Positions 16,748 through 60,382 of a stretch of 64,000 bases of DNA are shown here, piece by piece. The position numbers and the translations under genes are program-made. Under the pieces are notes generated by a model, which had not been told where the DNA came from, made no database searches, and was given only the letters and a program-made list of their open reading frames with translations. How positions within the stretch are numbered: the first letter of the stretch is position 1; each line of letters begins with the position of its first letter. Origin of the DNA: Terriglobia bacterium (GTDB lineage Bacteria; Acidobacteriota; Terriglobia; 20CM-2-55-15); the NCBI GenBank assembly GCA_963664115.2, contig CAXWPJ010000001.1, forward strand, positions 1 to 64,000. The letters run 5' to 3'.

Positions 16748-16811
16748 TTTAGGAAGATACCACTTAGGAAATTCGGAACTGCTATCTTATTGATGAACAG
16801 ACCGTTAGTGA

Positions 16812-17046
16812 CTCGAATCAGAAATTCAGTGCTTAACGGTTTCGTTCCCACCCGATCCGATCATCTATTTACTCTAAACGCCTCGGCTACCGCCTCGTTG
16901 TTCACCCGCAGCGAGGAACGCTGCGGGTCTTACAGGGCATGCACCAAGGTCCCAATTGTCCCCAAAAAACCCCGTCATCATTGATGATGACGGGGGGCGC
17001 CGGTCGTTCGGTCAGGAGGACCGAATGAACGACCGAGCGCTATCTT
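16812..17046. ncRNA. Candidate structured RNA / dispersed element, copy 1 (homologous to 60088-60321)
   Basis: Colinear similarity to copy 2 over ~235 nt; three hairpins with compensatory substitutions. Strand unresolved. Confidence 0.6.
16964..16995 (-). terminator. Rho-independent terminator-like hairpin downstream of gltD (also hairpin 2 of the two-copy element)
   Basis: Stem ccccgtcatca/tgatgacgggg followed by a U6 tract on the minus strand. Confidence 0.6.
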
Positions 17047-17087
17047 CTATGGGTAATCGACGTCACCACAGGCCAGTAGCTCGAATG

Positions 17088-60011: not shown

Positions 60012-60087
60012 CAACTTCGGGCGGAACCCTGCATTTCAGGTACTGCGGTCATAGCTTTCCCAGAGTGAAATCCGTCTTCCTAAATTT

Positions 60088-60321
60088 CTTGAGTCAGAAG
60101 TTTGCCGCTTAACAGGATGTCCTAGTCCGATCTGATCGTCTTCTTACTCTGCCGCCTCGGCTGCCGCCTCGTTGTCCACCCGCACCGTCGGAACGGTGCG
60201 GGTCTTTTCAGGGCATGCCTCAACCTTTCGCCGATCCCAAATAAGCCTCGCAATCAGGATGATTGCGAGGGTCGCCGGTCGTTCGGACAGGATGTCCGTT
60301 TTAACGGCCGAGCGAAATCTT
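60088..60321. ncRNA. Candidate structured RNA / dispersed element, copy 2 (homologous to 16812-17046)
   Basis: Same three hairpins as copy 1 with compensatory changes. Loops CGGA, AGGAT, AGGAT on the + strand. Confidence 0.6.
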
Positions 60322-60382
60322 GTCCCTTCGGCGAACCGGTCGGATGACGTAGTGTGCCGGACCCGACTTCAACCACGATCTG

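Follow-up and report, generated by a model that had tools for sequence, protein, structure and literature searches.

A repeat family of IS630-type MITE character combines decaying ends with a conserved three-hairpin interior in a Terriglobia bacterium

Within the window, the 64,000-nt stretch of contig CAXWPJ010000001.1 that was analysed, the intergenic region between lysC and gltD and the one between a prepilin-type gene and ubiE are 76% identical over 197 nt (blastn, E 1.5e-30). Alignment and blastn thereby bear out the first-pass annotation, which had taken the two regions for colinear homologues in the same orientation and had named these flanking genes. Copy 1 lies on the plus strand at 16805–17069 (ends approximate) between gltD and lysC, both of which are on the minus strand; it matches the family model over 16801–17057 with 196.8 bits (nhmmer) and has an orthologous copy in the congeneric genome G002 (locus L176). 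Its decayed left terminal inverted repeat (TIR, 16805–16827) aligns to the consensus TIR and precedes the P0 motif (16878–16896), which on the minus strand reads, by its sequence, as the DNA mini-hairpin GCGNNAGC. Three plus-strand hairpins follow: H1 (16904–16928), with a 10-bp stem and an AGGAA loop; H2 (16970–16995), which has lost GGA from its loop and on the minus strand is trailed by six T after the stem, resembling a terminator for read-through from gltD; and H3 (16998–17039), a long stem with an internal loop and an AGGAG terminal loop. The shortened remnant of the right TIR (17053–17069, limits approximate) was placed by alignment to the G002 ortholog. Copy 2, also on the plus strand, occupies 60080–60352 (ends approximate) between the convergent prepilin-type gene and ubiE and matches the model over 60082–60323 with 221.1 bits. 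It comprises a decayed left TIR (60080–60104) that aligns to the consensus TIR, a P0 motif recognised in the sequence (60152–60170), H1 with a TCGGAA loop (60178–60203), H2 with an AGGAT loop and a terminator-like minus strand (60246–60270), H3 with an AGGAT loop (60273–60314), and a decayed right TIR whose reverse complement aligns to the TIR consensus (60332–60352, limits approximate). The syntenic site of copy 2 in L013 holds no match, though other sequence occupies that site.

The five compensatory changes reported between the copies are present, one in H1 (16904–16928 versus 60178–60203), three in H2 (16970–16995 versus 60246–60270) and one in the inner stem of H3, as is the replacement of T-A by T.G in the outer stem of H3. 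On either strand, the folds of both copies are better than those of shuffled sequences (z −4.5/−6.1 and −3.4/−3.1). Across 22 aligned sequences the proportion of cells that pair is 98.2%, and both partners change in 11 of 38 pairs, a result reached by 0 of 500 shuffles, a control that related sequences can beat; RNAalifold on the gapped 173-row alignment returned almost no structure and its result was left unused. Within individual copies, 61% of cells pair in the TIR arms and 90–95% in the internal stems. G-U pairs over the core stems number 114 on the plus and 114 on the minus strand, so that neither strand is favoured, with H2 leaning toward plus and inner H3 toward minus. The earlier proposal of selection on secondary structure thus stands as far as the preservation of pairing goes, but preserved pairing need not mean selection on RNA, because the absence of a G-U strand preference, the occurrence of inverted loops and the movement of alleles between copies point to processes at the DNA level. 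The consensus has stops in all six frames and no small conserved ORF, as had been stated for the two copies; its longest open stretch is ~90 codons, and matched lengths are not constrained to multiples of three. Nor was a known RNA family recognised: the window gave no Rfam match at the gathering score, the best E values around the two copies were 0.51–0.77, and five further loci gave only a tRNA.

The description of the element as present twice holds for the window and fails for the genome, in which an iterated profile gave 78 nhmmer hits at E<=0.01, 58 of them at E<1e-10. By blastn the element occurs in 4 of 4 congeneric genomes (G001–G004; the present genome is G000) and in none of 26 other relatives. 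The host itself is an acidobacterium by its AroB, whose closest relatives carry the labels Terriglobia or Acidobacteria (81% and 60–61%). When one mismatch was allowed, a 13-base pattern from the core matched 161 times in G002 (control 9), 49 in G001 (18), 44 in G003 (9) and 31 in G004 (12); the G002 matches fall 102 on the reverse and 59 on the forward strand, with no matching switch at the inferred replichore boundary. We took 90 pattern loci of G002 and 30 each of G001, G003 and G004, plus eight blastn loci, and obtained a working alignment of 234 distinct rows, 173 of which cover >60% of the model (G000 44, G001 20, G002 80, G003 13, G004 16). Because the relatives' copies were chosen by the 13-mer, it was excluded from the main paired and unpaired core figures for orthologs and from the core figures for truncated and long copies given below; it is still inside the allele-sharing and outer-decay core figures. 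A sequence-only model found matches in 12 of 34 other genomes of the taxonomic family, and multiple copies outside the genus in G044 (71), G045 (54) and G046 (12) (of 72 candidates scored). What is shared outside the genus is a P0-H1 module of ~75 bases, often in inverted pairs or tandem arrays, which in genus g3 occurs 89 and 45 times. Among 81 pattern loci on metagenome contigs, 26 scored at E<=0.001, comprising full-length and partial relatives, and about two thirds of the 81 were unrelated sequence. The P0-H1 pattern was found in 0 of 400 other genomes of the phylum and the H3 pattern in 0 stretches of a genome-contig collection in which near relatives may be absent; no viral locus exceeded 22 bits among 120 pattern matches, the TIR pattern occurred in 0 viral contigs, and whole-element blastn against plasmids and phages returned only short chance-level pieces, one of which is an IS630 end. 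At L571, L580 and L578 (G045 and G044, genus g3), the P0-H1 module is in some cases enclosed by other inverted ends flanked by CTAG, so that repeats of more than one type seem to carry it.

The consensus of the 173 long copies is ~285 bp in length and has perfect 24-bp TIRs ending in CTAG. These agree at 23/24 and 22/24 positions with the two ends of an annotated IS630 in the Pseudomonas sp. MPC6 plasmid NZ_CP034782.1, which likewise has CTAG at both ends but belongs to another phylum and encodes a 361-aa transposase, and at 22/24 and 19/24 positions with an unannotated IS630 in the Paraburkholderia plasmid NZ_AP023182.1. A 46-base query from an intact end falls on annotated IS630 transposase genes in plasmids; of the plasmid records matched by short queries, 5 of 18 and 1 of 3 have the match on an annotated IS630 gene. 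The filled site at L141 has CTAG at both ends and the syntenic empty site in G000 has one CTAG, a configuration in which 2-bp and 4-bp duplications cannot be distinguished; this was the one clean filled/empty pair among 12 aligned, several others being compatible, and at L117 and L138 G000 keeps one end, the element having been lost by deletion. G001 and G002 contain young pairs of non-orthologous copies that are almost identical (outer identity as high as 0.96 and 0.93); G000 has none, its highest value being 0.71. From the copy number, the presence in congeners, the 24-bp TIRs, the match to IS630 ends and the CTAG filled/empty site we conclude that the element, as judged from these sequence features, belongs to the IS630-type MITEs. 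Of the two origins that the first-pass annotation had left open, a structure-bearing mobile element was thus the right one, in view of the IS630 ends, the CTAG pair and the 58 strong hits, and a paralogous sRNA family is not supported as the origin. The absence of terminal inverted repeats and target duplication noted earlier is true of the two decayed window copies only, the family having both; searching individual copies for paired TIRs gave no useful information. The first-pass annotation had named target duplications at dozens of copies, together with the lack of a transcript, as the picture that would speak for a MITE or REP rather than an RNA, and this is largely what we found, the transcript part being a weak test for RNA: run X20 placed one 52-base piece on the element with 4 differences (it may derive from a paralog) and gave almost no exact cover of the 8-kb region, and run X24 gave nothing on the element in contig-level data that hardly cover the organism.

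The search for IS630 elements with matching ends covered 49 loci from 81 matches in the four relatives, plus the types present in G000, which carries 33 IS630 copies; no locus so inspected in the genus has ends that match, the best agreeing at 17/24 positions. Since no examined resident IS630 has matching ends, the mobilising enzyme is one that we infer. Of the 33 IS630 copies in G000, 5 are located at an end of this MITE (C2:407397, C7:77209, C9:547818, C9:830987 and C10:180380). MITE CTAG sites make up ~38 of 1516 non-coding CTAGs in G000, and the IS630 excess there has p about 0.001; MITE ends look like IS630 hot spots. At C9:900506-900626 of the same genome lies a copy with its whole core deleted between two short GAACG repeats, both ends being left. 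Other short repeats of ~250–330 bp recur in the flank alignments (G000 C6:177197-177498, C9:900651-900921 and C10:503957-504284), and G000 therefore has further MITE-like families.

An IS91-like origin was considered and rejected. In G017 the single match lies upstream of an integrase followed by a putative IS91-type transposase, and a second copy of that element lacks the match; because it is the only matching site among 31 integrase loci, the match is a chance neighbour. An integrase-plus-transposase element, probably IS91-like, is present at G017 C1 and G001 C41 (L600–L602, L625 and L626) in at least 19 near-identical copies in each genome.

The element shows the marks, as tested here, of an IS630-type MITE, of which RUP and Correia are examples (PMC2229807, PMC10969869, PMC3184786, PMC11602168). 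Like RUP of Streptococcus pneumoniae, Correia/NEMIS and ERIC as PMC2229807 describes them, the present element is non-coding, falls in the range of ~100–300 bp, combines IS630 TIRs and TA termini with stable folds, and is found in dozens to >100 intergenic copies (PMC2229807); unlike them it has an unrelated interior, in which three internal hairpins are conserved rather than one long end-to-end stem. It resembles bcr1 of the Bacillus cereus group as a dispersed repeat in which compensatory changes keep a multi-hairpin fold (PMC3184786), and differs in its target, TA/CTAG rather than 5-bp direct repeats, and in being known here from DNA, where bcr1 has known transcription. CGTC-type REPs, REPINs and BIME-like arrays share with it a tagged GC-rich hairpin like H1 and, in g3, the inverted dimers and arrays; unlike REPs, the MITE unit is much longer, has IS630 ends in this genus, and carries C-G rather than T-A as the second stem pair. 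No description of this family was found in the literature as searched, supplements lying outside that scope, and the MITE catalogue of PMC11602168 could contain it. The family is new and its kind, the IS630-type MITE, is known; the inverted pattern of conservation, with allele exchange, is a variant feature. As a MITE family it is ordinary, and it is this pattern, with neutral ends and an interior at ~90% in every copy, that deserves attention.

Across 16 orthologous pairs of G000 and G002, 214/361 positions (59%) are identical in the TIRs and 503/834 (60%) in the linkers, compared with 747/853 (88%) in the paired core and 359/439 (82%) in the unpaired core; the flanking genes in the same comparison are identical at 1914/2843 fourfold sites (67%) and at 93.5% of codon positions 1 and 2. 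Base composition is no explanation, G/C positions giving 0.63 in the TIRs versus 0.87–0.90 in the core (G000 copies). The identity of the core to the consensus does not follow outer decay, staying at ~0.905 in each class (rho 0.08, n=106), and truncated G000 copies have a core value of 0.85 (n=19) versus 0.87 in long ones (n=44), a comparison biased by detection. In two runs with a close relative, 78 bases over the left end have diverged and the lysC side differs at 5 of 272 positions. The unpaired motifs are 95–97% conserved in G000.

How the core is kept uniform was judged from the distribution of alleles. The orthologs are genuine, since derived states are shared in their outer parts (0.163 versus 0.103 in permuted pairs, p=0.005). 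A signal of orthology persists in the core stems as well (p=0.007), which speaks against a purely passive account; the H1-H2 linker has none (p=0.43), but does show sharing among G000 paralogs. Alleles typical of G000, among them compensatory pairs of H1 and H2 with both partners changed, occur in copies of G000 for which the G002 ortholog has the ancestral base. At least one loop or insertion module differs in 13 of 17 orthologous pairs of long copies (rough regex typing; one via an untyped module). The independence of core identity from end decay, together with genome-specific alleles in old loci, indicates gene conversion as the probable cause of the sharing, and ectopic conversion, which needs homology on both sides, would spare the edges. 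Loops are also inverted in place, in H2 of 4 of the 173 copies and in a few H1; these inversions demonstrate that the DNA is rearranged through the hairpin arms, a process by which compensatory pairs can likewise arise. Conversion tracts should homogenise the H1-H2 linker, yet paralog identity is 0.59 in the linker versus 0.87 in H2, the linker being as variable as the ends, and selection on motifs is therefore probably also acting. Hairpin self-repair, for its part, cannot explain the conservation of unpaired motifs. Another genus and other repeat layouts contain the P0-H1 module almost without change, which suggests a recognised function, and some selection on motifs is likely.

In G000, by rough gene calls, 31 of 57 copies lie between convergent genes, a position that accounts for 223 of 1366 gaps in the background (p=6e-11); for 45 of the 57, a gene ends on the right-hand side of the copy. 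Over 156 of the 173 copies, the sense strand at co-directional sites is the minus strand in 54 cases and the plus strand in 15 (p=2.6e-6), a bias contributed mostly by G002 (35 versus 6) and not significant in G000 alone. We infer a modest polar effect on read-through that would filter surviving insertions. A stronger claim is that each copy is a selected bidirectional intrinsic terminator, with H1 and its T-tract acting on the plus strand and H2 and its T-tract on the minus strand, and that this alone preserves the core. The strong enrichment between convergent genes fits such a role, as do the minus-strand terminator score of H2 in both window copies, the presence of >=5 T in the 8 bases after H1 in 64% of G000 copies, and the gain of T in the minus-strand tail of H2 as the TIRs decay (rho −0.31, p=0.003). 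The tails, however, ignore the direction of the neighbouring gene (4.05 versus 3.96 T after H1, p=0.87; 2.5 versus 2.6 after H2), a strong H1 tail is found in only 10–25% of copies in the other four genomes, and a terminator needs no conserved loops, P0 or H3. Since the strength of the T-tracts after H1 or H2 is unrelated to gene direction, termination is a weak part of any cis effect, and termination as the sole keeper of the core is very unlikely.

A further reading is based on CsrA, namely that the MITE carries a domesticated CsrA-binding RNA whose plus-strand GGA loops make the copies a dispersed CsrA sponge or marks on host mRNAs. A(N)GGAX on a stem is the Csr/Rsm motif bound by CsrA/RsmE, with lower affinity when N is missing (PMC4005645), and a GGA loop is present in H1 of 127/173 copies, in H2 of 143/173 and in the short H3 of 112/117. 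In the six-base H1 loop the first two positions are conserved at 60–64% and the GGA at 80–84% (n=121), and a divergent metagenome copy (L390) alters the H3 stem and keeps AGGAT; copy 1, on the other side, lost GGA in H2. The best Rfam score for copy 2 is to Bacillaceae-1 RNA (RF01690), at 19.2 bits against a cut-off of 35 (E 0.51). That RNA and the CsrB/RsmZ-type sRNAs are among the nearest known systems, the shared feature being hairpins with AUCCU loops on one strand and AGGAU on the other, with the strand uncertain; the reverse complement of RF01690 has been proposed to bind CsrA (PMC4333381; PMC2864571 only lists the motif); the MITE differs in having its hairpins inside transposon ends. 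The Rfam CsrB, CsrC and Rsm models gave no match in the window, in either copy or in five further loci. The genome has two csrA genes, and csrA is present in 16 of 18 genomes of the family, but many family genomes with csrA lack the element. The same strand data that suggest a polar effect count against the loops as RNA, since the minus strand, which lacks the GGA loops, is the one more often read from neighbours; moreover, GGA retention is independent of a gene reading into the plus strand (p=0.12 and 0.80), neither window copy has a sigma-70 promoter within it, and G-U pairs show no strand bias. We regard a CsrA-binding role as unlikely. Less probable still is its fullest form, in which the MITE took a module of three GGA loops to the ends of dozens of genes and the whole family was domesticated by the host as a dispersed, conversion-synchronised CsrA sponge; the module would then predate the MITE and have moved with different repeat layouts in a sister genus. 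Acidobacteriota would on this view have a Csr system built by a transposon. If the GGA loops do bind CsrA, a network of regulatory RNA would have come from a transposon; none of the papers listed for CsrA with transposable elements deals with such a case, judged by title or the start of the abstract. One of the two csrA loci, L011 (G000 C9:34610) and L012 (C9:507406), adjoins fliW-like and flagellin-like genes and one is stand-alone; most family genomes searched also have two csrA.

The P0 motif can be read differently, with the core as a REP/BIME-type single-stranded-DNA signal, or as a site for priming or for loading a protein. On this reading the core is older than the MITE, a host or HUH-type protein recognises it, and it came to lie within IS630 ends by capture. 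As DNA, GCGN(N)AGC forms a mini-hairpin of unusual stability that occurs at phage priming sites and at the N4 promoter, its RNA form being much less stable (PMC13037366). The minus strand of P0 reads GCGN(N)AGC in 127 of 173 copies, with N variable and the third pair dispensable, and an RNA GNRA loop fits in only 18 of the 173; the mini-hairpin may, however, simply be inherited from the founder. H1, with its TGTC/CGTC tag, 10-bp stem and 5–6-base loop, is loosely like CGTC-type REPs (PMC3733652), and the inverted pairs and tandem arrays of the P0-H1 module in g3 agree with such an origin; the inverted dimers with a spacer belong to this g3 module, not to the element in the present genome. Against a link to RAYTs, which we rejected, the module flanks 0 of 17 Y1-transposase loci from five genomes. 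Nor is there an orientation bias relative to the replication strand in G002 (42 versus 38, with noisy arm assignment) or in G000. A 13-base word held in common with ColE1, which we take to lie near a primosome assembly site, was likewise set aside: it is a single word, the comparison was chosen after the fact, and 7 of 500 shuffles do as well. An attC-like reading was dropped, resting on a half-site motif seen by eye. Taken together, we consider a captured single-stranded-DNA signal improbable. A separate repeat family of metagenome contigs, with further GNA-loop hairpins, shares the P0 motif (L352, L359, L361, L369, L375, L378, L386, L387, L398, L402, L405, L414 and L417). The motif also matches, possibly by chance, a repeated sequence at L353, L368, L376, L396, L407, L410, L413, L423 and L427, which we take to be the reverse strand of a group II intron domain.

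The account that we favour is that of an IS630-type MITE with decaying ends whose interior is kept by conversion and self-repair and which has a weak effect in cis. An IS630 transposase acting in trans likely spreads the ~285-bp non-coding element into CTAG sites near gene ends; after insertion the ends decay, and the interior with its three hairpins probably stays uniform through conversion among the copies and self-repair of hairpins. Of this account, the ends, the target, presence and absence between genomes, the contrast of ends and core and the alleles shared across loci were observed, and the enzyme, conversion as the cause of the sharing, self-repair and the cis effect are deduced from them. 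A weak cis effect on read-through, through pausing, termination or 3-prime protection, may then let copies survive mainly at gene ends and in one orientation. As a whole we hold this account to be probable, with moderate confidence. The family would provide a clear example from nature in which gene conversion could be measured among short repeats dispersed in bacterial genomes, and it cautions that paralogous repeats can covary with no functional RNA behind them.
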